Assembly (NCBI GenBank): GCA_947459245.1
Contig: CANHCV010000004.1
Coordinates: forward strand, 12,893 to 76,892
Source of the DNA: Bacteroidota bacterium
Lineage (GTDB): Bacteria > Bacteroidota > Bacteroidia > UBA7662 > CANHCV01
Length of the DNA stretch: 64,000 nucleotides
Direction: 5' to 3'
The notes beneath the pieces were generated by a model, which was not told where the DNA came from, did no database searches, and was given only the letters and a program-made list of their open reading frames with translations. The position numbers and the translations under genes are program-made. Positions 18,425-28,913 of this stretch are shown one piece after another (positions within the stretch are counted from its first letter, which is position 1; each line of letters begins with the position of its first letter).

Positions 18425-19696
18425 ATGTTAGATATTCGTACCATTCGAGAACAAAAAGACCTCATCGCAGCACGTCTTGCTCGTCGATCCAAAGATTTTT
18501 CCGCCGATTTGGATCAAGTCATTGCTTTGGATGATCAACGGAAAGCCATTCAATTGCAATTGGATACCAATCTCGCCCGACAAAATGAATTGGCTAAATC
18601 CATTGGTGCGTTAATGAAGGATGGAAAAAAGGAAGATGCCGAAGCTGCAAAGCAAGAAGTTGCTCAGTTGAAGATGACTTCGAAGGACATCGAAGAAAAA
18701 AAGATTTCCAAGGAAATGGAAATCAAACAAATCCTTTTAACTATTCCGAACGCTCCGGCAGAACGTGTTCCAATCGGAAAAACTCCCGAAGAAAATGAAA
18801 TCGCTTTTGCCATGCCCGGTTTGCCATCGGTTCCAGAAGGTTCTATACCACACTGGGATTTAGCAAAAAAGTACGATTTGATCGATTTCGAAACGGGAGT
18901 GAAAATTGCCGGCGCAGGGTTTCCGCTCTACAAAGGAAAGGGTGCTCGTTTGCAACGTGCCTTGATCAATTTCTTTTTGGATGAGGCGGAAAAGGCCGGT
19001 TTTCAAGAAGTTCAGCCTCCAATTGTAGTGAACGAAGATTCGGGATATGGAACCGGTCAGTTGCCCGATAAAGAAGGCCAAATGTATTACATCGGTTTGG
19101 ATAACCTTTACTTGGTTCCTACCGCTGAAGTTCCTGTTACCAATATTTTTAGAGATACCATTCTAAAAGAATCCGACTTCCCCATTCAACTTACTGCATA
19201 CACTCCGTGCTTTCGTCGAGAAGCAGGTAGTTATGGAAAAGATGTTCGAGGGTTAAATCGCTTGCATCAGTTTGATAAGGTTGAAATTGTGGTGGTGGAT
19301 CATCCCGAAAATTCATACAGCAGGTTGGAGGAAATGAGGAATTACGTTGCAGGTTTGTTGGAGAAATTGGGATTGCATTACCGAACGCTTTTGTTGTGTG
19401 GAGGAGACATGGGTTTTGCATCAGCCATGACGTATGACATGGAAGTATATTCTGCAGCCCAAGAACGTTGGCTTGAGGTGAGTTCCGTTTCTAATTTTGA
19501 ATCGTTCCAAGCCAATCGTCTTCAGTGCCGATTCAAAGGCGAGGACGGTAAAACGCGATTGGTGCACACCCTGAATGGGTCGGCCCTCGCATTGCCTCGC
19601 ATCGTGGCATCTCTTTTGGAAAATAACCAAACCCCGGAAGGAATTCGAATCCCATCTTGCCTAGTTCCATATACCGGTTTTGACCTTATTTCCTAA
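18425..19696 (+). CDS. serS: Serine--tRNA ligase
   Basis: MLDI N-terminal coiled coil; PTAEVP, CFRREAG, RLHQFDKVE and HTLNGS motifs; TAACTTTG at 18400-18407. Confidence 0.97.
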   Translation: MLDIRTIREQKDLIAARLARRSKDFSADLDQVIALDDQRKAIQLQLDTNLARQNELAKSIGALMKDGKKEDAEAAKQEVAQLKMTSKDIEEKKISKEMEIKQILLTIPNAPAERVPIGKTPEENEIAFAMPGLPSVPEGSIPHWDLAKKYDLIDFETGVKIAGAGFPLYKGKGARLQRALINFFLDEAEKAGFQEVQPPIVVNEDSGYGTGQLPDKEGQMYYIGLDNLYLVPTAEVPVTNIFRDTILKESDFPIQLTAYTPCFRREAGSYGKDVRGLNRLHQFDKVEIVVVDHPENSYSRLEEMRNYVAGLLEKLGLHYRTLLLCGGDMGFASAMTYDMEVYSAAQERWLEVSSVSNFESFQANRLQCRFKGEDGKTRLVHTLNGSALALPRIVASLLENNQTPEGIRIPSCLVPYTGFDLIS

Positions 19697-21345
19697 TGAG
19701 AAAAATTGTCCTCTCTTTCCTTTTCCTTTGGATTGGCCTTGCATCTTCCGCTCAGTTAAGTGGAGATTTACAAGTAAACCAGAACTTTTTTATTCTGGAT
19801 TCAGCAATTTTCCCCAATGGAAACGTAATTCCTCCCCAATACTACCAGCAACTTTCATCCACTGAAGGTTGGCTAACGATGAATTACCGACATGATGACT
19901 ACACCTTCGGTATTCGTTACGATTTGTTTCAAAACAGTGGTTTAAGGAATCCGCAAGCGGCGTACAACGGACAGGGATTAGGCTATTGGTTTGTTCAGAA
20001 AAAAACAGATAACCTTGAAATTACTGCAGGTTATTTCTACGAGCAATTTGGTTCTGGAGTTGCTTTCCGGGCTTACGAACAGCGCGGCCAAAATTTGGAT
20101 TATGCCATTATGGGAATGCGGGCAAAATACCAGTTTTCCGATAAATGGAGCATGAAGGCATTTACGGGTAAGCAGAAATTTCTTTTTGGAACGTATCAAC
20201 CGGCCATCAGCGGGGTTTTTACCGAAAGAGAATTTCAACTTTCTGAAAATTTCAGATTCAACGCGTACACTTCGGTGGTTAACCGCGTTATGGATAATTC
20301 TGATGCTCAAACCATTTTGAATAATGTGAATTTACAAGCTCTTCAAGAACGATTTGACGTTCGAAGAAACGTGTGGATTTACAACGGTGGAATTCAAGCC
20401 GATTACAAAAACTTTAGTTTTCAGGGAGAGGCAAACTTTAAAACCCGTGAAGCCATGAACGATAATAAAATTGATACGTTGGTGGATGGATCAGGGAATG
20501 TAAGTTACACGCAAAGAAACATTCTTGTGAATAAACCCGGCACCGTACTTTTCGGCTCGGTTAGTTATTCCAAGCCGGGATTAGGGGTTACGGCTCAATT
20601 CAAACGAACCGATCATTTCGATTTTCGCACGTCTCCGAATGAAATTCTAAACAATGGCTTGGTTTCCTTTCTGCCTCCCATTGCCAGAATGAATACTTAC
20701 CGATTGCCTAGTCGTTATGCCCCTGCAACCCAATTGATCGGTGAGCAAGGTTTTCAAATCGACGTTTCAAAACGCTTGAATAAAAAACACGATGTTGCTG
20801 TTAATCTCGCTCAAAGCACCGATTTAAGGAATCAATTGCTGTACCGAGAGGTTTATTTGGAAGTGAAGTCGAAAATTGGAACGAAAGTCAAAGCGGTTTA
20901 CGGTGTTCAATACCTCAATTATAATTTTGGGGTGTATCAAAAACAAGAAATTCCCGGTACCAACGGAAATACGACCGATAAATTGGTTCGTGCTGTTACT
21001 CCTTACATCGACGTTACTTACAAAATTGATCGGAAAAAGTCGCTTCGCATGGAACTATCTCACATGTCTACACAACAAGATCTTGGGTCATGGTGGTGGG
21101 GATTGCTGGAGTACAACATTGCGCCGAAATACAGCTTTTCCATTATGGATATGTGGAATTATGGGAATCCAAGAGCTAACGAACGAATTCATTATTACAC
21201 CATTTTTGGTGCAGTGAATTTTGGTAAAAACCGTTTAGCTGGTGGATACGTTAAGCAAGTTCAAGGCGTGGTTTGCAACGGTGGCGTTTGTAGGGTTGAA
21301 CCCGCATTCAATGGATTTCGTTTTACCTTAACCTCAACGTTTTAA
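19696..21345 (+). CDS. DUF6029-like outer-membrane beta-barrel protein
   Basis: Signal peptide, amphipathic strands, FYEQFGSG, C-terminal CNGGVCR.EPAF.G...TSTF; family recognised from memory. Confidence 0.75.
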   Translation: MRKIVLSFLFLWIGLASSAQLSGDLQVNQNFFILDSAIFPNGNVIPPQYYQQLSSTEGWLTMNYRHDDYTFGIRYDLFQNSGLRNPQAAYNGQGLGYWFVQKKTDNLEITAGYFYEQFGSGVAFRAYEQRGQNLDYAIMGMRAKYQFSDKWSMKAFTGKQKFLFGTYQPAISGVFTEREFQLSENFRFNAYTSVVNRVMDNSDAQTILNNVNLQALQERFDVRRNVWIYNGGIQADYKNFSFQGEANFKTREAMNDNKIDTLVDGSGNVSYTQRNILVNKPGTVLFGSVSYSKPGLGVTAQFKRTDHFDFRTSPNEILNNGLVSFLPPIARMNTYRLPSRYAPATQLIGEQGFQIDVSKRLNKKHDVAVNLAQSTDLRNQLLYREVYLEVKSKIGTKVKAVYGVQYLNYNFGVYQKQEIPGTNGNTTDKLVRAVTPYIDVTYKIDRKKSLRMELSHMSTQQDLGSWWWGLLEYNIAPKYSFSIMDMWNYGNPRANERIHYYTIFGAVNFGKNRLAGGYVKQVQGVVCNGGVCRVEPAFNGFRFTLTSTF

Positions 21346-21346
21346 C

Positions 21347-22198
21347 ATGAAGAAGTTCTTTTTTGGAATGGCAATTTTGGGAAGCATCGCTTCGTGTTCC
21401 GAAATTCCATTACCCTATGATCAATCGAAAGGTAGTTTGAAAGATACCACTTATGTTGGTCCTGTAGAATCGCCTCAGTTAAGAAATGTTTTGGTAGAAA
21501 AGTCAACCGGAGTTCAGTGCAATAATTGCCCGAAGGGCGATGCTGCTATCAAGCTTTTTGATTCCATTTATCCGAATAGAATTGTTGCGGTAGGAATCCA
21601 TAACGGTTTTCTCGCCAATCCACATAAAGCTGGTGAGGACACCTTGAAAACCCAATTTGGAGAAGACATCATTACTTATTTAGGGTTCCAAGCACAACCT
21701 TCTGCAGGCATCAATCGACGTAAATTCGATTCTCAACCCAACTTGTTGGTGGCCCTTCCTTTTTGGAAAAATTTGGTCGATAGCCAACTGACCACTTCAA
21801 CGCCCATCAATCTTTCTTTGGGTCAAATTTCTTACAATGCCTCCAATCGAACGGTTACGTTTGCCATCACAGGGAAGTTTACCCAACCCGTTTCTGGTGC
21901 ACTGAATTTGAGTGTAATGGTGGTGGAAGATAAAATTGAAGCCGAGCAAAAAATGCCTGATGGCACTTACAACTCCACCTACGAACAAGAGCACGTTTTA
22001 AGAACCATGTTTACACCTGCTTTGGGTACCCCATTGAACCTGCCCGATCAAAATGCGGGAAGGGTGTTTACCAAGGTTTACGAGGAATCGCTTCCCGCCA
22101 AAATAAAACCGGAAAATGCTAAATTGGTGGTATTTATTCACCGAAGCAGTCCCGGACAAACCGAAGTGCTTCAAGCCATTCAAGCCAAACTAAAATGA
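21347..22198 (+). CDS. Omp28-related lipoprotein (thioredoxin-like plus Ig-like domain)
   Basis: Lipobox IASC; VLVEKSTGVQCNNCP, GIH, QP...INR and HVLR motifs. Confidence 0.8.
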   Translation: MKKFFFGMAILGSIASCSEIPLPYDQSKGSLKDTTYVGPVESPQLRNVLVEKSTGVQCNNCPKGDAAIKLFDSIYPNRIVAVGIHNGFLANPHKAGEDTLKTQFGEDIITYLGFQAQPSAGINRRKFDSQPNLLVALPFWKNLVDSQLTTSTPINLSLGQISYNASNRTVTFAITGKFTQPVSGALNLSVMVVEDKIEAEQKMPDGTYNSTYEQEHVLRTMFTPALGTPLNLPDQNAGRVFTKVYEESLPAKIKPENAKLVVFIHRSSPGQTEVLQAIQAKLK

Positions 22199-23430
22199 AA
22201 TCCCTCCCGCGGATAGCCATCATTGGTGCTGGTCCGTCGGGTAGCACGTGTTCATTTTTTCTATCTCGATTTCAAATTCCCCATGTTCTAATTGATGCCG
22301 CTGAATTTCCGCGCGATAAAATATGCGGAGATGCCATCAGCGGAAAAGCATTGCATATTCTTCGGAAAATGGACTCCCAAGCAGTGGAAGATCTCCATTC
22401 AAAAGCCGGGTTTACCGATACTTGGGGGATTTCATTCACTGCGCCAAACGGGAAAAAGCTCGATATTCCTTTCAAAAAAGATAAAAAAGAAGATGATTTG
22501 CCAGTTGGATTCGTTTCCAAGAGGTTGGATTTCGATCATTACTTATTTCAGAAAGCGCAATCAACTTTTGCTCAGATTCGAACCAATACGTCCTTGGTAG
22601 GCATTCAAAAAGGTCCCAATGGTGTAGTTTTAGAATTGAAGAAGAATGGATTGATGGAAACGATGGAGGTAGATTGGGTGATCGGTGCCGAAGGTGAGCG
22701 ATCCGTGGTTGCAAAGTCTTTAGCCGATTACCGAAAGGAGCCCCGACATTTTTCAGCGGGCATTCGGCAATACTGGAGAGGCGTTACCCAATGCCATTCA
22801 GAAAATTACATTGAACTCCATTTTTTAAAGGATTTACTTCCCGGTTATTTTTGGATCTTCCCTATGGCGGATGGAACCTGCAATGTAGGTTTGGGAATGC
22901 GATCCGATCGGGTGAGCAAAGGGAAGGTGAATTTGAAAAAAGAATTGGATCGAATCATTCAAGAACATCCCCAATTCAAAGATCGTTTTCAACAGGCCGA
23001 GGCCTTGGAAATGCCCAAAGGATGGGGTTTGCCGATGGGTTCCAAGCAACAAACCATCGCAGGAGACGGATTTTTACTGTTGGGCGATGCGGCTGCGTTG
23101 ATTGATCCATTTACCGGAGAAGGCATTGGGAATGGCATGAAATCGGGTTGGATGGCCGCCGAACTGATACGAGATTGTTGTGAAAATGGGTCATGGGCAT
23201 CGCTTCCTTCGAGGTACCAGCAACGGGTTTACCGGAGTTTGGGCGATGAATTACGGGTAAGCGACTTTCTTCAACGGTCGTTGGATTTTCCCTGGTTATT
23301 CAATGCCGTTGTTAGGAAAGCAAATAATAGTCCGCTTCTGAAAGAAACGCTGATTTGCATGTTTGAAGATGTAGATCTCCGGCAGCAGTTGCGCAAACCC
23401 AAGTTTTATTGGGATTTGTTGGTGAAATAA
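22195..23430 (+). CDS. Geranylgeranyl reductase family FAD oxidoreductase
   Basis: GAGPSG, FPRDKICGD, GYFWIFP and GDAAALIDPFTGEGI motifs. Confidence 0.9.
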   Translation: MKSLPRIAIIGAGPSGSTCSFFLSRFQIPHVLIDAAEFPRDKICGDAISGKALHILRKMDSQAVEDLHSKAGFTDTWGISFTAPNGKKLDIPFKKDKKEDDLPVGFVSKRLDFDHYLFQKAQSTFAQIRTNTSLVGIQKGPNGVVLELKKNGLMETMEVDWVIGAEGERSVVAKSLADYRKEPRHFSAGIRQYWRGVTQCHSENYIELHFLKDLLPGYFWIFPMADGTCNVGLGMRSDRVSKGKVNLKKELDRIIQEHPQFKDRFQQAEALEMPKGWGLPMGSKQQTIAGDGFLLLGDAAALIDPFTGEGIGNGMKSGWMAAELIRDCCENGSWASLPSRYQQRVYRSLGDELRVSDFLQRSLDFPWLFNAVVRKANNSPLLKETLICMFEDVDLRQQLRKPKFYWDLLVK

Positions 23431-23433
23431 CGA

Positions 23434-25371
23434 TTATTTTTTGGGAAGAATGAACGACCAGGGCTCTTTGAGTATGGTCCAAATGACGTGTCGAAAAAGC
23501 CCTGGTGTTTCTCCGAACTTGATTCCCCTGCTTCGCACGGCTACCAACATACTTAATCCAAAGCTGAAAACCACATTGATGGTAGCAACGCCAAGCACTC
23601 CCAAAACAAAATGCCAGATGTGCCAGTTGTTCGGCAATTGGTTATCCAAACTTTGAAATGCAACACCAATGTTTCCAAAAACAAAGGTTACGTGTCGAAT
23701 ATCGATGGGAAGACCGAGGATGAGTCCGAAGAAAGAAGCTGTTCCTAGGAAAAACCCTAGCGAGAAGTTACCCGCCAAGTTGCTAAGGTTGTGTTCAATA
23801 TAATTGGAGATTTTGATGGTCCTTTTTACACCGAACAATTGCTTGAAAGCCAAACTGTTTTTGATCCTTGCCGGCAATCGGTCGTAGTTCATTTTGTTTT
23901 CTACAAAGCCGGCAATCAATCCCGACAGCATGAGGAAAACACCCGTAAGGATGGCATAAAAGAATAATCCCGATTCCCACGGGTGGTTGTTCTTGAGCGT
24001 AATTTCCGCTTCTTCAAGAGTTAACAAGGAACTTCCCGTTTGAATTTTCCATAAATATGCCCACAAATAAGCGAAAGGGCCTACCAGCATCAAATTCCCA
24101 ATCAATGCAACCGTTTGGGTGCTCGAAATCCGCTTCACCAACCGGGTAAAATCTACCTTGATGTTTTCTAAACTTGAGTTTTTACGAATAGCCCCTGCCA
24201 AAGTACTGGCTGTCATGGAAGGTTGTTTGGTGGCAATGGTGAATCCAAATGTTTGAACTATGGTGAATCCTAGTCCATAATTGAAACTGAATAGCAATGC
24301 TTCAATGAGCGGTGGGGCGTGAAGAAAATGAAGCAAGGTTTTGGTTAGAACCATGATGGAAACGATAAATCCGCCTCCCATGGCAGCTTTTAGCATAGCG
24401 AACCATGCTTTTCTGCCAACCGCTATGAAATTTTCTCCTTTTCGCGAGGTTTGTTCAACAATTTTGTAGGCAAGCACATTCAGGGTGTCTTCCAACATGG
24501 GGCGAATGTGTTTTTTCTCAAATTCGTTTTTCAGAAGGGACTGAACCAAATGAAACATCGCCTCTTGGGCATTGGGATCTTTTGGTTGATGGTAAATAAG
24601 AAGCAGTTGGCGAATTCTAGAAATCTCCAATTCCATCCGCTTCAAGGTAAATGCCATTCGTAACGAAATTCCAAACTGGTCTTTGTGCCGTTGAAGTTGT
24701 TTCAATTGAAGTTCAACCTCGGCAATGTTTTCCCAAACCAAAATGTAATTGGGCTCCGTTCTACCTTCTTCGGTAAGGAAATGATGCATTTGGTGTTGAA
24801 GTTGCACCATGGGAGAAAGAACTTCATTCTCAATTTTTAGTTTCTCGATAACTTCAGGCAATAGCCCTTCTGACGCTAAGCGAGTGGTTAAAATGATCAA
24901 TGCGTCGCGAATTTCTCCCCGCATTTTTAAGCGGATGCCTTCAGGAATGGAGTCGAAAAATCGAAGTTTTTGGAACAATTCCCGGAGATTTCCGTGGGTA
25001 AATACGTGTTTTATGATCGCTCGATCTTTGGCAAGGAGGATTTTGGAAAGGTGGTCGTCCAAAGAGTTGGGCGAATACACGGGAGCAATGATTTTTGAAC
25101 CAAAACGTTTGTTCAATTCCGACCAAAATCCTTCGTATCCAAGAATTCCATTTTGAGCGAATGCCCACTGAAATTCGGTATGGTCTAAAAACCAATGCAT
25201 CATTTCGAGGAATTTATCCCTAGCGAAAGCATTGGTTTCTATTTCGTGAACAATTTTCTCCCATTGCAATTCTGCATTAACGCCTAAATGCAAAAAGCTC
25301 AGCATCTCCCGAAATCTTCGGTATTTGCCCATTCGGGGTTCGGTTAGAAAAACGGGTTGAAGCTGAATCAT
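23434..25371 (-). CDS. Gcr/'site-specific recombinase' family membrane protein (probable FNT-like channel, see findings)
   Basis: ATKQPSMTA, NYGLGF and DIRHVTF family motifs; six hydrophobic helices in the C-terminal half. Confidence 0.8.
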   Translation of the reverse strand: MIQLQPVFLTEPRMGKYRRFREMLSFLHLGVNAELQWEKIVHEIETNAFARDKFLEMMHWFLDHTEFQWAFAQNGILGYEGFWSELNKRFGSKIIAPVYSPNSLDDHLSKILLAKDRAIIKHVFTHGNLRELFQKLRFFDSIPEGIRLKMRGEIRDALIILTTRLASEGLLPEVIEKLKIENEVLSPMVQLQHQMHHFLTEEGRTEPNYILVWENIAEVELQLKQLQRHKDQFGISLRMAFTLKRMELEISRIRQLLLIYHQPKDPNAQEAMFHLVQSLLKNEFEKKHIRPMLEDTLNVLAYKIVEQTSRKGENFIAVGRKAWFAMLKAAMGGGFIVSIMVLTKTLLHFLHAPPLIEALLFSFNYGLGFTIVQTFGFTIATKQPSMTASTLAGAIRKNSSLENIKVDFTRLVKRISSTQTVALIGNLMLVGPFAYLWAYLWKIQTGSSLLTLEEAEITLKNNHPWESGLFFYAILTGVFLMLSGLIAGFVENKMNYDRLPARIKNSLAFKQLFGVKRTIKISNYIEHNLSNLAGNFSLGFFLGTASFFGLILGLPIDIRHVTFVFGNIGVAFQSLDNQLPNNWHIWHFVLGVLGVATINVVFSFGLSMLVAVRSRGIKFGETPGLFRHVIWTILKEPWSFILPKK

Positions 25372-26501
25372 TAAAAATCAAATTCTCGTTCGCTGATATC
25401 AATGCCCATCAATCGAAACATCTGAGCCATGTCCATGGGGCGGGTTTGATCGTTGTTGCTCAAAACAATAACGCACGCATTTCTTTTGGGGATGCGGAGG
25501 AAATTATTTTTAAAGCCGTTCCACCAACCGCGGTGGTAAACGATCCCACTTCCATCTTTAAAAAGTCGCCATCCCAAACCGTAGTCTTTTATTCCCTTCA
25601 TTTCCGGACTTCCTGCGTACATTTTCCGCTGAATCGAATCCGATAACAGAAAGTTGTTTTCTAAGGCAACGTGGAATTTCAGCAAGTCAAGGGCCGAGGC
25701 ATAAATGCCTTTGTCTCCAACAATTCCATCAATCAATTTATCGTTTCGGGCATATTTTCCACTGAATCCGATGGCTGAATTTTCGGTTCTCGGTGCATAT
25801 CCATTTCTGAAAATGAAAGAATTGTACATGCCAATGGGCTCAAAAATTTCCTGATCCACAAAATCTTCAAAAGGAGCTTGGGTAACTTGTTCAACAATGC
25901 AAGCCAATAACGCGTAATTGGTATTGTTGTAACGGAAAAACTGACCGGGTTTGGTGTAGGGAGCGGGTTTCTTCTCAACCATGTACTGAACCAATTGTTC
26001 GTTGGTTATGGGCTCGCCTCCATTGTAGCTTTTTGGAAGGAAATTCAGGTAATCGGGTAAGCCACTGCGGTGATTGAGAAGCATTTCTACGGTTACTTTG
26101 GGGTAGGGGATACCAGGAAAAAACTGGGGCAAAGTATCGGAAAGCGAAATAATCCCGCGTTCTACCAAGATCATCACCGCGGAAGAAGTAATGGTTTTAC
26201 TCACCGACGCCAATTGAAAGGAGGTGTTTAAATTCAAAGAATCCAAGGTTCTCCAATCGCGAACACCGTAAGAATTCCAAAATACCTGCCCATCGTTAAA
26301 TAAAACAACACTTCCATTGAAATGCCCCGACTGGTGCAATCGCTTGAAATACTGATCTATTTTTTGATGCGTTGCAGAATCAAAGGGTTGAAGCGAGTTT
26401 AAATAAATGGTCTCAGGATGAAGCGGAACAGGTGGATCTCCCGCAAAACTGAATTGGGATAAGCAAAAAGCGCAAAGGAGTAAAAAGAATCTACAAAGCA
26501 T
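25371..26501 (-). CDS. Serine hydrolase, beta-lactamase/PBP-like family, secreted
   Basis: FQLASVSK (SxxK), LLNHRSGL, YNNTNY (YxN) and HRGWW motifs. Confidence 0.9.
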   Translation of the reverse strand: MLCRFFLLLCAFCLSQFSFAGDPPVPLHPETIYLNSLQPFDSATHQKIDQYFKRLHQSGHFNGSVVLFNDGQVFWNSYGVRDWRTLDSLNLNTSFQLASVSKTITSSAVMILVERGIISLSDTLPQFFPGIPYPKVTVEMLLNHRSGLPDYLNFLPKSYNGGEPITNEQLVQYMVEKKPAPYTKPGQFFRYNNTNYALLACIVEQVTQAPFEDFVDQEIFEPIGMYNSFIFRNGYAPRTENSAIGFSGKYARNDKLIDGIVGDKGIYASALDLLKFHVALENNFLLSDSIQRKMYAGSPEMKGIKDYGLGWRLFKDGSGIVYHRGWWNGFKNNFLRIPKRNACVIVLSNNDQTRPMDMAQMFRLMGIDISEREFDF

Positions 26502-26610: not shown

Positions 26611-28506
26611 TTAGCGCATCAATCTTTTGATATCCATTTTGGAATTCCAGTGCCTTAAATACTCGTTTTTTAACGCTTCTTCAATTTTTTCAAAATTGCT
26701 TTCGGAATAATTGAACACGTAATTTTTGTTTTTTCCTGGATTAGGAATCGGAACTCCTACCCAAGTTTTCCGACCGAGGAAAACGGAAAGTAGGTTGGTA
26801 AAAATGAGGTTTCTTCTTTTCGAAATTAGAAAATAAGGAAAAGTGAAGAAGAAAAAAAGGCAAATCAATAGGTCTAAAATTCGTTTGTTTCGTTGATTTG
26901 AGGGGGAGAAATAAGCCAAATTGAAATCTTTGCTGTACAATACCCCAGGTGTTTCAACCGATTGAGAGCCAATGATGAATGAACTTTCTTTGGGAACAAT
27001 TTTGAAGACGTATTTCTTTTTCAATTGCTCCATGCTTTGAATGATGCTAGTATTGGAAAGGGACGCGCCACAAAAAATGATTTGCTCCAGTTGTAAGTCA
27101 GATGCAATTTTGGGTAGCTCAAGGAAATTGCCGAGGCCATGGGTTGCAGAAGAAGGATTGATGTAGCCTAAATAACGAATGGAGGAATTGGCTTTTTGAA
27201 GAAGGCCTAAAACGCGTTCAACTTCCATTTCCGAGCCAATCATGATGGTTCTTAAATCGGTTTGAGAATCGTTTTTCCATTGGCCTAAACCAATTCTAAT
27301 CAACAGCCATCGGAAGCCAATGAGGCCAATGCCTCCCACGAGTGCTCCAACCAACAACATTCCTCTCGAAAATCGAACCGACTCATCCAATAATCCGTAG
27401 GCAGCTAACGTGATGGTTGTTCCCACGGCCAATCCTCGAAGCAATTTCCAAGGTTTGAACGGACGATCGTATCCTCCTGAAAAATACATCGAAAGCAACC
27501 AAACGAAAATGTAAGCCGGAACAAATCCAAACAGAAAAACATCGGGGTAGCGAACCCCATCCATTTCTTTGATGTTTCGCTCCCAATATCCTTCTAAAAA
27601 ATAAAAAAGGGTCCAAAGGAGCGAAAAATCGAACAAAGGGAGCAAGCTTTTTTGAATCCTGTGCGATAAATAGGCCCAAATGGCTTTGCCAATGATGGCC
27701 GGATAGAGCAAGGTGGAGAGGAGGAAGGCCTGCCCTTTGGTAAAGTACCTTTTTGCGAAAATGATCATGGCTCCGTAAAAGGCTTTTACATAACTATAAC
27801 TCTCTTTTCGAGTACTTTCTCCTTTGTAGTGAATGATGGGGGTGTAGGGGAAGTAATGATTTTCGTAACCTGCTAATCGAATGCGATGCGACAAATCGAT
27901 GTCTTCACCGTACATGAAATAAGTTTCATCCAATAAACCTATTTCATCCAAGACCGATTTTCGCATCCACATGAAAGCACCGGCTAATACCTCTACTTTT
28001 TGGGGCATGGTTTCCGATAAATTTCCGTGGTAATAGGCCCCAAAACGCGGATGTTCCGAAAATAATTTAGAGAGTCCTGTCATTTTGTAAACAGCAACCT
28101 CGGGCGTTGGTAGTCCTCGCTTGGATTCTGGCAAGTAAACGCCCGAACCATCCAGCATTTTTACCCCAAGTCCACCCAGTTTTGGATGCTCCTGGCAATA
28201 ACTCAAAATTTCTTTAAAACAATTTTCTGGTACAATCGTATCGGGATTAAGCAATAAAACCCATTCGCCCCTCGCCAAGCGAATGGCTTGATTATTGGCT
28301 TTGGAAAATCCAACATTGTTCTGATTTGCAATGAGTTTAACTTGAGGGAATTGGAGTTTGATCCATTCCACCGACCCATCCGATGAGTTGTTGTCTACCA
28401 CAAAAACTTCCGCTTCCAAATCTTGGGTAGCAGCAAAAACGCTTCTCAAGCACTGCTCTAGAAAGTATTTGACGTTGTAATTGACAATGACTACCGTTAG
28501 TACCAT
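26611..28506 (-). CDS. GT2 glycosyltransferase fused to a TM region and a WcaJ-like C-terminal region
   Basis: VIVNYN, VDNNSSD, LLNPD and YGEDID motifs; then several TM helices, a Rossmann-like segment and KRILD. Confidence 0.88.
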   Translation of the reverse strand: MVLTVVIVNYNVKYFLEQCLRSVFAATQDLEAEVFVVDNNSSDGSVEWIKLQFPQVKLIANQNNVGFSKANNQAIRLARGEWVLLLNPDTIVPENCFKEILSYCQEHPKLGGLGVKMLDGSGVYLPESKRGLPTPEVAVYKMTGLSKLFSEHPRFGAYYHGNLSETMPQKVEVLAGAFMWMRKSVLDEIGLLDETYFMYGEDIDLSHRIRLAGYENHYFPYTPIIHYKGESTRKESYSYVKAFYGAMIIFAKRYFTKGQAFLLSTLLYPAIIGKAIWAYLSHRIQKSLLPLFDFSLLWTLFYFLEGYWERNIKEMDGVRYPDVFLFGFVPAYIFVWLLSMYFSGGYDRPFKPWKLLRGLAVGTTITLAAYGLLDESVRFSRGMLLVGALVGGIGLIGFRWLLIRIGLGQWKNDSQTDLRTIMIGSEMEVERVLGLLQKANSSIRYLGYINPSSATHGLGNFLELPKIASDLQLEQIIFCGASLSNTSIIQSMEQLKKKYVFKIVPKESSFIIGSQSVETPGVLYSKDFNLAYFSPSNQRNKRILDLLICLFFFFTFPYFLISKRRNLIFTNLLSVFLGRKTWVGVPIPNPGKNKNYVFNYSESNFEKIEEALKNEYLRHWNSKMDIKRLMR

Positions 28507-28523
28507 ACCAACGTGCAAGATAT

Positions 28524-28913
28524 TCAATAATATTCAACGGGCACAAAAGCGTGTTCAAAATGTTCCAATTCCCATGCTTTTTCAGGATGGGTAATGATGG
28601 AAATTACATCGAAACGAATTTCATCGGGATGGGGAAATTTTCGCAAATAATGCCGTGCAGCTTGGGTGATTTTGCGTTGCTTGAGCGAATTTACGGCCTT
28701 TTCCGGGTGGGCGTTTTTCCAAGGTTTTCTCGATTTTACTTCCGTGAAAACCAAGGTGTTCTGATCTTTGGAAACGAGATCAATTTCGGCAATGGTAGAG
28801 TAATGGAAGTTTTTTTGAAGGATAAGATGTCCTTTTTGCAGTAAATAAAGTTCTGCAAATGCCTCCGCCGAACGTCCTGTTTCGGTAGAGGCGTTTTTTT
28901 CCGTCTTTTTCAT
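28524..28913 (-). CDS. yraN: YraN family PD-(D/E)xK protein
   Basis: G..AE, EIDLV, FTEVKSR and RFDVI motifs. Confidence 0.9.
   Translation of the reverse strand: MKKTEKNASTETGRSAEAFAELYLLQKGHLILQKNFHYSTIAEIDLVSKDQNTLVFTEVKSRKPWKNAHPEKAVNSLKQRKITQAARHYLRKFPHPDEIRFDVISIITHPEKAWELEHFEHAFVPVEYY

Follow-up and report, generated by a model that had tools for sequence, protein, structure and literature searches.

The gene analysed here occupies positions 23434..25371, on the minus strand, of a 64,000-nucleotide stretch of DNA (the window) from a Bacteroidota bacterium (GenBank assembly GCA_947459245.1, contig CANHCV010000004.1, positions 12,893 to 76,892 of the forward strand). It belongs to the family PF10136 ('SpecificRecomb'), whose full name is that of a site-specific recombinase. 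Our verdict is that PF10136 is instead a new and widespread variant of the formate-nitrite transporter (FNT) superfamily that has been misannotated family-wide. The gene is a single open reading frame (ORF) of 645 amino acids plus the stop codon, and we read its product as a channel of the FNT superfamily that carries a cytoplasmic domain at its N-terminus. In the Pfam scan residues 33-643 aligned with positions 25-639 of the 639-position PF10136 profile (E = 1.1e-152, 510.1 bits), a full-length match that exceeds the gathering cut-off of 24.6 bits; the NCBIfam scan of the 645 residues gave no match. The protein would be located in the inner membrane and consist of two halves, a helical cytoplasmic one (residues 1-289) and an FNT-homologous one (residues 290-645). 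That the membrane half has the fold and the ancestry of FNT proteins we hold to be highly probable, and the reading as a whole, a regulated channel of the FNT superfamily, is in our judgement probable. All features of the protein given below by their window coordinates lie on the minus strand.

The fold of the membrane half was examined in the predicted structure of residues 290-645 (23437..24504). The AlphaFold2 model of this half, derived from an alignment of 108 sequences, reached a pLDDT of 93.9 and a pTM of 0.91. It comprises a helix preceding the first transmembrane helix (TM1), then TM1, TM2a/TM2b, TM3, TM4, TM5a/TM5b and TM6, and finally the C-terminal helices. The model was compared by VIA-align, without the Foldseek prefilter, with 48,161 representative chains of the PDB. 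The first four positions were taken by FNT proteins: LciA (9v2a; Z 21.3, 246 residues aligned, root-mean-square deviation (rmsd) 3.3 Å), NirC (4fc4; Z 21.3, 245 of 249 residues aligned, rmsd 3.4 Å), PfFNT (6vqq; Z 20.3, 247 residues aligned, rmsd 3.8 Å) and FocA (3kly; Z 18.4, 235 residues aligned, rmsd 3.5 Å). Behind them, at ranks 5-19, stood 15 aquaporins (Z 10.7-13.9), and the first match of another fold was at rank 20 (Z 6.1). With Foldseek, ranks 1-29 among the matches listed were all FNT proteins at a probability of 1.00, with TM-scores, normalised to the target, of up to 0.75. The secondary structure assigned by DSSP to the model shows TM2 and TM5 each interrupted by a loop of eight residues, TM2 being split into helices 354-374 and 383-394, and TM5 into helices 515-552 and 561-574. 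In the numbering of the model the breaks correspond to helices 65-85 and 94-105 separated by loop 86-93, and to helices 226-263 and 272-285 separated by loop 264-271. Loop-broken TM2 and TM5 are the defining architecture of the FNT family (PMC5525234), whose members (PF01226; FocA, NirC, HSC/FNT3, PfFNT and LciA) share the same six-helix hourglass. FNT proteins form homopentamers; for the PF10136 membrane domain, prediction of a complex of two copies gave scores of 0.01 and 0.00 against a mark of 0.42 and was run without controls, and its outcome is neutral with regard to oligomerisation.

The presence of aquaporins in second place raises the alternative that the protein is a channel of the aquaporin/MIP type, conducting a neutral solute and not related to FNT, the more so as FNT and MIP proteins are described as having the same hourglass fold (PMC5525234). 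However, the FNT proteins score 5-10 Z units higher, and the sequence signal leads to PF01226, with no match to a MIP family either in the protein or in 72 of its relatives. Moreover, the NPA motif occurs in the membrane half of none of the 99 members of the family alignment in which conservation was counted throughout this work, and a threonine and a histidine placed in the loops, as described below, are features of FNT proteins. An aquaporin identity is on these grounds extremely improbable.

The sequences themselves point in the same direction. At E<=1 only three Pfam families matched the protein, namely PF10136, PF01226 and PF10459, and the PF01226 match, which stays under the family's cut-off (E = 0.0062, 16.4 bits), joins residues 308-482 to profile positions 6-162. 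The same scan was applied to the first 72 of the 99 aligned sequences. All 72 are PF10136 members, and 33 of them match PF01226 at E<=0.01, the best at 6.1e-7, always over profile positions of about 2-165 and in the same register. Other Pfam families appeared in no more than two members each, DUF2207_C in two and four further families once. In the phylum of the window, 7 of the 11 PF10136 genes detected in 151 genomes match PF01226 at E<=0.01 (best 9.5e-8), and precomputed PF01226 matches exist on three relatives.

Profile-profile comparison was carried out with hhalign, using an FNT profile of 26 sequences built from five FNTs of the phylum (two FocA/NirC-like and three divergent), the remaining sequences being relatives of one of these five. 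The profile of the PF10136 membrane half aligned with it at P 6e-5 over 172 columns (residues 303-493 with FNT 8-184). The controls, the N-terminal half against the FNT profile and the membrane half against the reversed FNT profile, gave P 0.27 and 0.23. The preliminary description of this DNA, made from the letters of the window, had proposed a divergent FNT-superfamily member and had matched it with FocA helix by helix; the identity is borne out by the fold comparison and by the significant homology of TM1-TM4. Its matches for TM1, for TM2 with the threonine of the omega loop, and for the Gly-Asn of TM3 fall in the exact hhalign register, and that for TM4 pairs the right helix with a displacement of one residue. 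The six hydrophobic helices that it had counted in the C-terminal half are recovered in the model as membrane helices, of which two are broken. Homology to FNT is demonstrable for TM1-TM4 by sequence comparison, and for the remainder it is argued from the collinear match of the predicted fold.

The residues that characterise the FNT family were then located in PF10136, taking their conservation in 2,206 FNT sequences from Table 2 of a 2017 survey, in 3KCU numbering (PMC5525234). Seven equivalents of FNT hallmark residues (Y365, F369, T381, N426, G477, H560 and N599) are invariant, each in 99/99 members, and the first five were placed by the hhalign register. In TM2a (Y365...F369, 24265..24279) Y365 falls on F75, the residue of the central constriction, which is aromatic in 98.8% of FNTs, and F369 falls on L79, a constriction residue that forms the cytoplasmic slit (PMC5525234). 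TM2 is broken at F375-P384 (FGFTIATKQP, 24220..24249) by an omega-loop-like segment that is seen in the model. In the hhalign register position 379, an isoleucine in this protein, aligns with FNT L89 (99.9%) and is aliphatic in 99/99 members (Leu in 66, Ile in 22 and Val in 11), and T381 aligns with T91 (97.9%). Within this motif A380, T381, K382 and P384 are found in all 99 members and Q383 in 98. In TM3, G425-N426 (24094..24099) are both kept in 99/99, with N426 on FNT N121 (99.4%), and G477 occupies the position of A171, a small residue in 99.9% of FNTs (PMC5525234).

The corresponding residues of the second half were assigned by topology. TM5 is interrupted in the model by an S-loop-like segment, G553-H560 (GLPIDIRH, 23692..23715), whose final residue is the candidate pore histidine H560, in the same place as FNT H209 (98.7%; PMC5525234); it is preceded by D557 (99/99) and R559 (95/99). 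The candidate equivalent of FNT N262 (100%) is N599, in the middle of TM6 (23575..23577), the 15th residue of the model helix as compared with the 16th in FNT (PMC5525234). T381 and H560 are the same residues that the preliminary description had singled out as the pore threonine and histidine, and their strict invariance agrees with that choice. The full-length alignment contains 18 invariant columns, 16 of them in the membrane half, and an automatic choice of the two peptides with the highest conservation fell on the two loop motifs. By analogy with FNT proteins, the loop residues T381 and H560 would be situated at constrictions of a pore within each subunit, which would most likely conduct a small, singly charged anion or the corresponding weak acid.

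The position of the protein with respect to the membrane was deduced from the distribution of positive charges. Lys and Arg account for 17 of 81 residues in the loops predicted to face inwards, as against 1 of 38 in those facing outwards; therefore both termini and the N-terminal domain would be cytoplasmic, as are both termini in the FNT proteins. Between TM4 and TM5 there is a basic insertion on the cytoplasmic side (residues 497-528, 23788..23883), where 7 of the 32 residues are Lys or Arg and where the model places a helix (499-513) and an extension of TM5a. In classical FNTs only a three-residue turn separates TM4 (161-184) from TM5a (188-204) (PMC5525234). The N-terminal domain (residues 1-289, 24505..25371) is predicted to be cytoplasmic. 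The AlphaFold2 model of residues 1-320 (pLDDT 89.8, pTM 0.89) is all-helical, in keeping with the helical N-terminal half of about 310 residues announced in the preliminary description, and has a four-helix-bundle core at approximately residues 142-269. VIA-align matched this model only to generic four-helix bundles, over residues 142-269 and at Z<=9.1, values within the helical-bundle noise of the tool; Foldseek returned no specific match (best E 0.074, TM-score <=0.25); and an Atlas feature search for the domain, from which the PF10136 clusters had been excluded, yielded no usable match. Two residues of the domain, G234 and R252, are invariant. At the junction of the halves, helix 291-315 aligns with the N-terminus of FNT in the hhalign comparison. 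It was also observed that the family consensus at residues 309-317 (window ~24421-24447), between the N-terminal domain and TM1, carries the motif T-G-E-H-Y-I-T, with G312 in 98/99 and Y315 in 94/99 members; the protein of the window has a degenerate form, K-G-E-N-F-I-A. This motif could be a hinge or a plug between regulator and pore.

FocA offers a precedent for control from the cytoplasmic side, since its N-terminal helix takes part in gating by pyruvate formate-lyase. The two systems are alike in that a cytoplasmic element preceding TM1 could control the cytoplasmic entrance. They differ in that the candidate regulator of PF10136 is a covalently attached domain of ~290 residues and not a short helix binding a separate enzyme. 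Residues 1-289, together with the basic TM4-TM5 insertion, would probably regulate the entrance, and we infer gating from this arrangement. In addition to the N-terminal domain and the basic insertion of ~32 residues, PF10136 proteins differ from FNT proteins by a C-terminal helix. They also differ in the chemistry of the loops: an invariant lysine follows the threonine, and Asp-x-Arg precedes the histidine, in contrast to the G-[YFW]-E-H of FocA-like members of the FNT alignment. The charges of K382, D557 and R559 suggest that selectivity or gating would depend on a chemistry unlike that of FocA, NirC or HSC.

Several results weigh against the interpretation of this protein as an FNT-type channel. 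The Foldseek E-values are weak, the best being 1.8e-3. None of the 72 members reaches the curated PF01226 gathering cut-off of 34.6 bits, the highest score being 29.5; therefore PF10136 is to be regarded as a relative at the level of the superfamily and not as a curated member of PF01226. From TM4b to TM6 the similarity to FNT is not significant, and in this half the relationship cannot be recognised by sequence: hhalign gave P 0.23 for residues 494-645 and, for the trimmed TM5a-TM6 segment, 0.12 in local and 0.28 in global mode, and global alignment of the full domain misaligns this second half. The hidden Markov model (HMM) of the family, searched against the sequences of the PDB, detected no FNT and gave no match with an E-value below 0.1, and the same was true of a search with the single sequence, although an HMM-versus-sequence search is too weak for a relationship this remote. 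Because of the lack of significant similarity in the second half, the proposed equivalences of H560 and N599 rest on the predicted model and on the order of the helices. The TM5 histidine and TM6 asparagine matched with FocA in the preliminary description agree in position with the model, whereas their sequence support, with the P values just given, is not significant. As regards the pore, FNT F90 is replaced by an invariant alanine, A380, and the invariant K382 and D557 and the near-invariant R559 adjoin the threonine and the histidine; all four are specific to the family. Therefore the pore could be plugged, or the site could serve for binding instead of conduction. Finally, the genomic context offers no clue to a substrate.

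These charged residues lead to the alternative of an FNT-derived fold that is no longer a channel, acting as an anion sensor, a transceptor or a carrier whose N-terminal domain would signal to cytoplasmic partners. Charges beside the threonine and the histidine could occlude the pore or constitute a binding site, the large cytoplasmic domain is conserved and has invariant residues of its own (G234 and R252), and the second half has diverged beyond recognition by sequence. However, the constriction positions (Y365, F369 and the aliphatic residue at 379) are kept strictly, as would be expected of a working pore; no kinase, GGDEF or helix-turn-helix (HTH) signalling domain was found by Pfam in the N-terminal half of the protein or of the 72 relatives; and no conserved partner gene was found at ten loci of the phylum or at 80 further loci. 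Loss of the channel function is accordingly judged unlikely, and a pore conducting an anion or a weak acid is favoured, with moderate confidence.

The name Gcr, under which the 'site-specific recombinase' label of PF10136 is also found, presumably derives from Neisseria gonorrhoeae. Taken literally, the label would make the protein a true site-specific recombinase of a novel, membrane-anchored type, in which the N-terminal helical domain binds and recombines DNA. Apart from the family name and the source names in databases, two circumstances could be adduced in its favour: the N-terminal domain is without an assigned fold, so another activity is conceivable, and the meningococcal Gcr, listed there together with repair proteins, showed a 3.6-fold increase in a recG mutant (PMC5063381). 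The latter observation, which also counts against the channel, would fit a DNA-related role, but in that report Gcr was placed under DNA recombination and repair on annotation alone (PMC5063381). The sequence and structure data do not bear out the name. No tyrosine- or serine-recombinase, integrase, resolvase, transposase or HTH family was detected by Pfam in this protein at E<=1, and no recombinase, transposase or HTH family in the 72 relatives at E<=0.01. No recombinase fold occurs among the Foldseek and VIA-align matches listed for either half, a result that does not extend to folds outside those lists. Furthermore, the invariant residues are concentrated in the membrane half, several of them at FNT pore positions.

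The surroundings of the gene do not favour recombination either. The inverted repeats found between 20000 and 29000 of the window are all of 30 nt or less and 70-85% complementary; considered as recombination sites, they were judged to be due to chance, being short and imperfect. At ten loci of the phylum the two nearest ORFs on each side of the PF10136 gene, 40 in total, were scanned, and none of the gene families reported for them is of the mobile-element kind. In the literature no paper testing a recombinase activity of Gcr was found, subscription papers being outside the search. The preliminary description had noticed no recognisable recombinase motif and had declared the family label wrong, and on both points the present results concur. 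A recombinase is thus very improbable. In sequence the protein does not differ from the family to which the label is attached; it is the functional label of PF10136 that the evidence contradicts.

PF10136 is a large family. Among 1.84 billion representative proteins, 1,425 clusters (50% identity representatives) matched at E<=0.001 and 773 at E<=1e-30, and when one genome per species was scanned for a pattern, relatives were located in at least 574 species genomes of several phyla. Among the matches listed are Bacteroidota, many Beta- and Gammaproteobacteria, Bdellovibrionota, Myxococcota, Calditrichia and Chloroflexia. The distribution is patchy: in the phylum of the window PF10136 genes were found in 11 of the 151 genomes sampled; they are present in both same-genus genomes, in only 1 of the 18 other genomes of the order, and in none of the 14 model organisms used as controls. 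The source genome of the window has one PF10136 copy, and no canonical FNT was found in it. Two other genomes of the phylum, G031 (L003/L025) and G039 (L004/L023), each encode a canonical FocA/NirC-like FNT plus a PF10136 gene, and therefore the two kinds of protein are not simple substitutes for one another. A further locus, L007 (G075:C7:45588-46202), from a genome of 2.0 Mb in the same class, matches PF01226 (E = 1.1e-16) with one in-frame TAA and may be a broken FNT gene.

A search for membrane domains standing alone produced 48 short matches, most of them on contigs of 1-2.5 kb and probably cut off by the contig ends. Three (P0320, P0323 and P0334), of 322-325 amino acids and on contigs of 5-7 kb, have a methionine just before TM1; they may represent FNT-like domains that occur naturally by themselves, or else split or mis-started genes. 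Two others, P0344 and P0347, look frameshifted.

With regard to the gene in the window, Met14 (ATG at 25330-25332) provides an alternative start. The ESM Atlas entry begins at residue 14, and P0002, the database cluster nearest to the protein, is 632 amino acids long, while four other close relatives are annotated at 645. The start codon of the 645-residue frame overlaps by one base (TAATG) the stop codon of the upstream gene, on the same strand at 25371..26501, which encodes a beta-lactamase-family serine hydrolase of 376 amino acids (PF00144, E = 4.7e-51). The overlap suggests translational coupling, and the two genes are probably co-transcribed. Genome G151, of the same genus, shows the same overlapping arrangement. 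Beyond the genus the association is not maintained: PF00144 is not among the families listed for the 40 neighbouring ORFs of the ten phylum loci, and the beta-lactamase-family gene is not a conserved partner of PF10136. At these loci common neighbours occur only among close relatives (a TonB-dependent receptor plus PhoD at two loci and an amidohydrolase at two). Across the bacteria, 530 ORFs from 80 loci were clustered, the clusters being unannotated, and no neighbour cluster was present in more than six loci; the crude ORF calls used there gave some spurious long ORFs in GC-rich genomes.

Upstream of the hydrolase, at 26611-28527 on the minus strand, lies a gene for a family-2 glycosyltransferase of 638 amino acids with a long C-terminal hydrophobic extension, so that from 28527 to 25371 and on into the PF10136 gene the glycosyltransferase, the serine hydrolase and the PF10136 protein are encoded by three genes in a row on one strand. 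On the plus strand, at 19696-23430 and converging on the PF10136 gene, are the genes of a DUF6029 protein (549 amino acids, E = 1e-109), an Omp28-family outer-membrane protein (283 amino acids) and a geranylgeranyl-reductase-like FAD oxidoreductase of 411 amino acids; the last of these convergent genes is also present in the same-genus genome.

In the literature searched, subscription papers again excepted, no paper was found that links PF10136 or Gcr with FNT. FNT sequences entered the 2017 survey by way of cross-references to PF01226, PROSITE and InterPro, and 'recombinase' is nowhere mentioned in it (PMC5525234); therefore PF10136 lay outside its net. In its most far-reaching form, the hypothesis would be that PF10136 is an unrecognised, widespread FNT branch with an Ala-Thr-Lys / Asp-x-Arg-His pore, a substrate outside those of the known FNTs (formate, nitrite, hydrosulfide, lactate and bicarbonate), and gating by the attached ligand-sensing domain of ~290 residues. 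We put this forward tentatively, its chances being slightly short of even.

The finding bears on the whole family and not on a single gene, as the 'site-specific recombinase' label is carried by 1,425 clusters and feeds into other analyses, such as the proteomics classification of the meningococcal Gcr (PMC5063381). Re-reading the family as regulated FNT-type channels would remove a false call of DNA recombination and would add a deep branch to a superfamily that is studied as a drug target, since animals are reported to be without FNTs (PMC5525234). It would also present a new cytoplasmic domain. Moreover, the family amounts to a natural test of which residues of the FNT pore are indispensable: the threonine, the histidine, the two asparagines and the constriction residues would be those that survive, while the other sequence has drifted.

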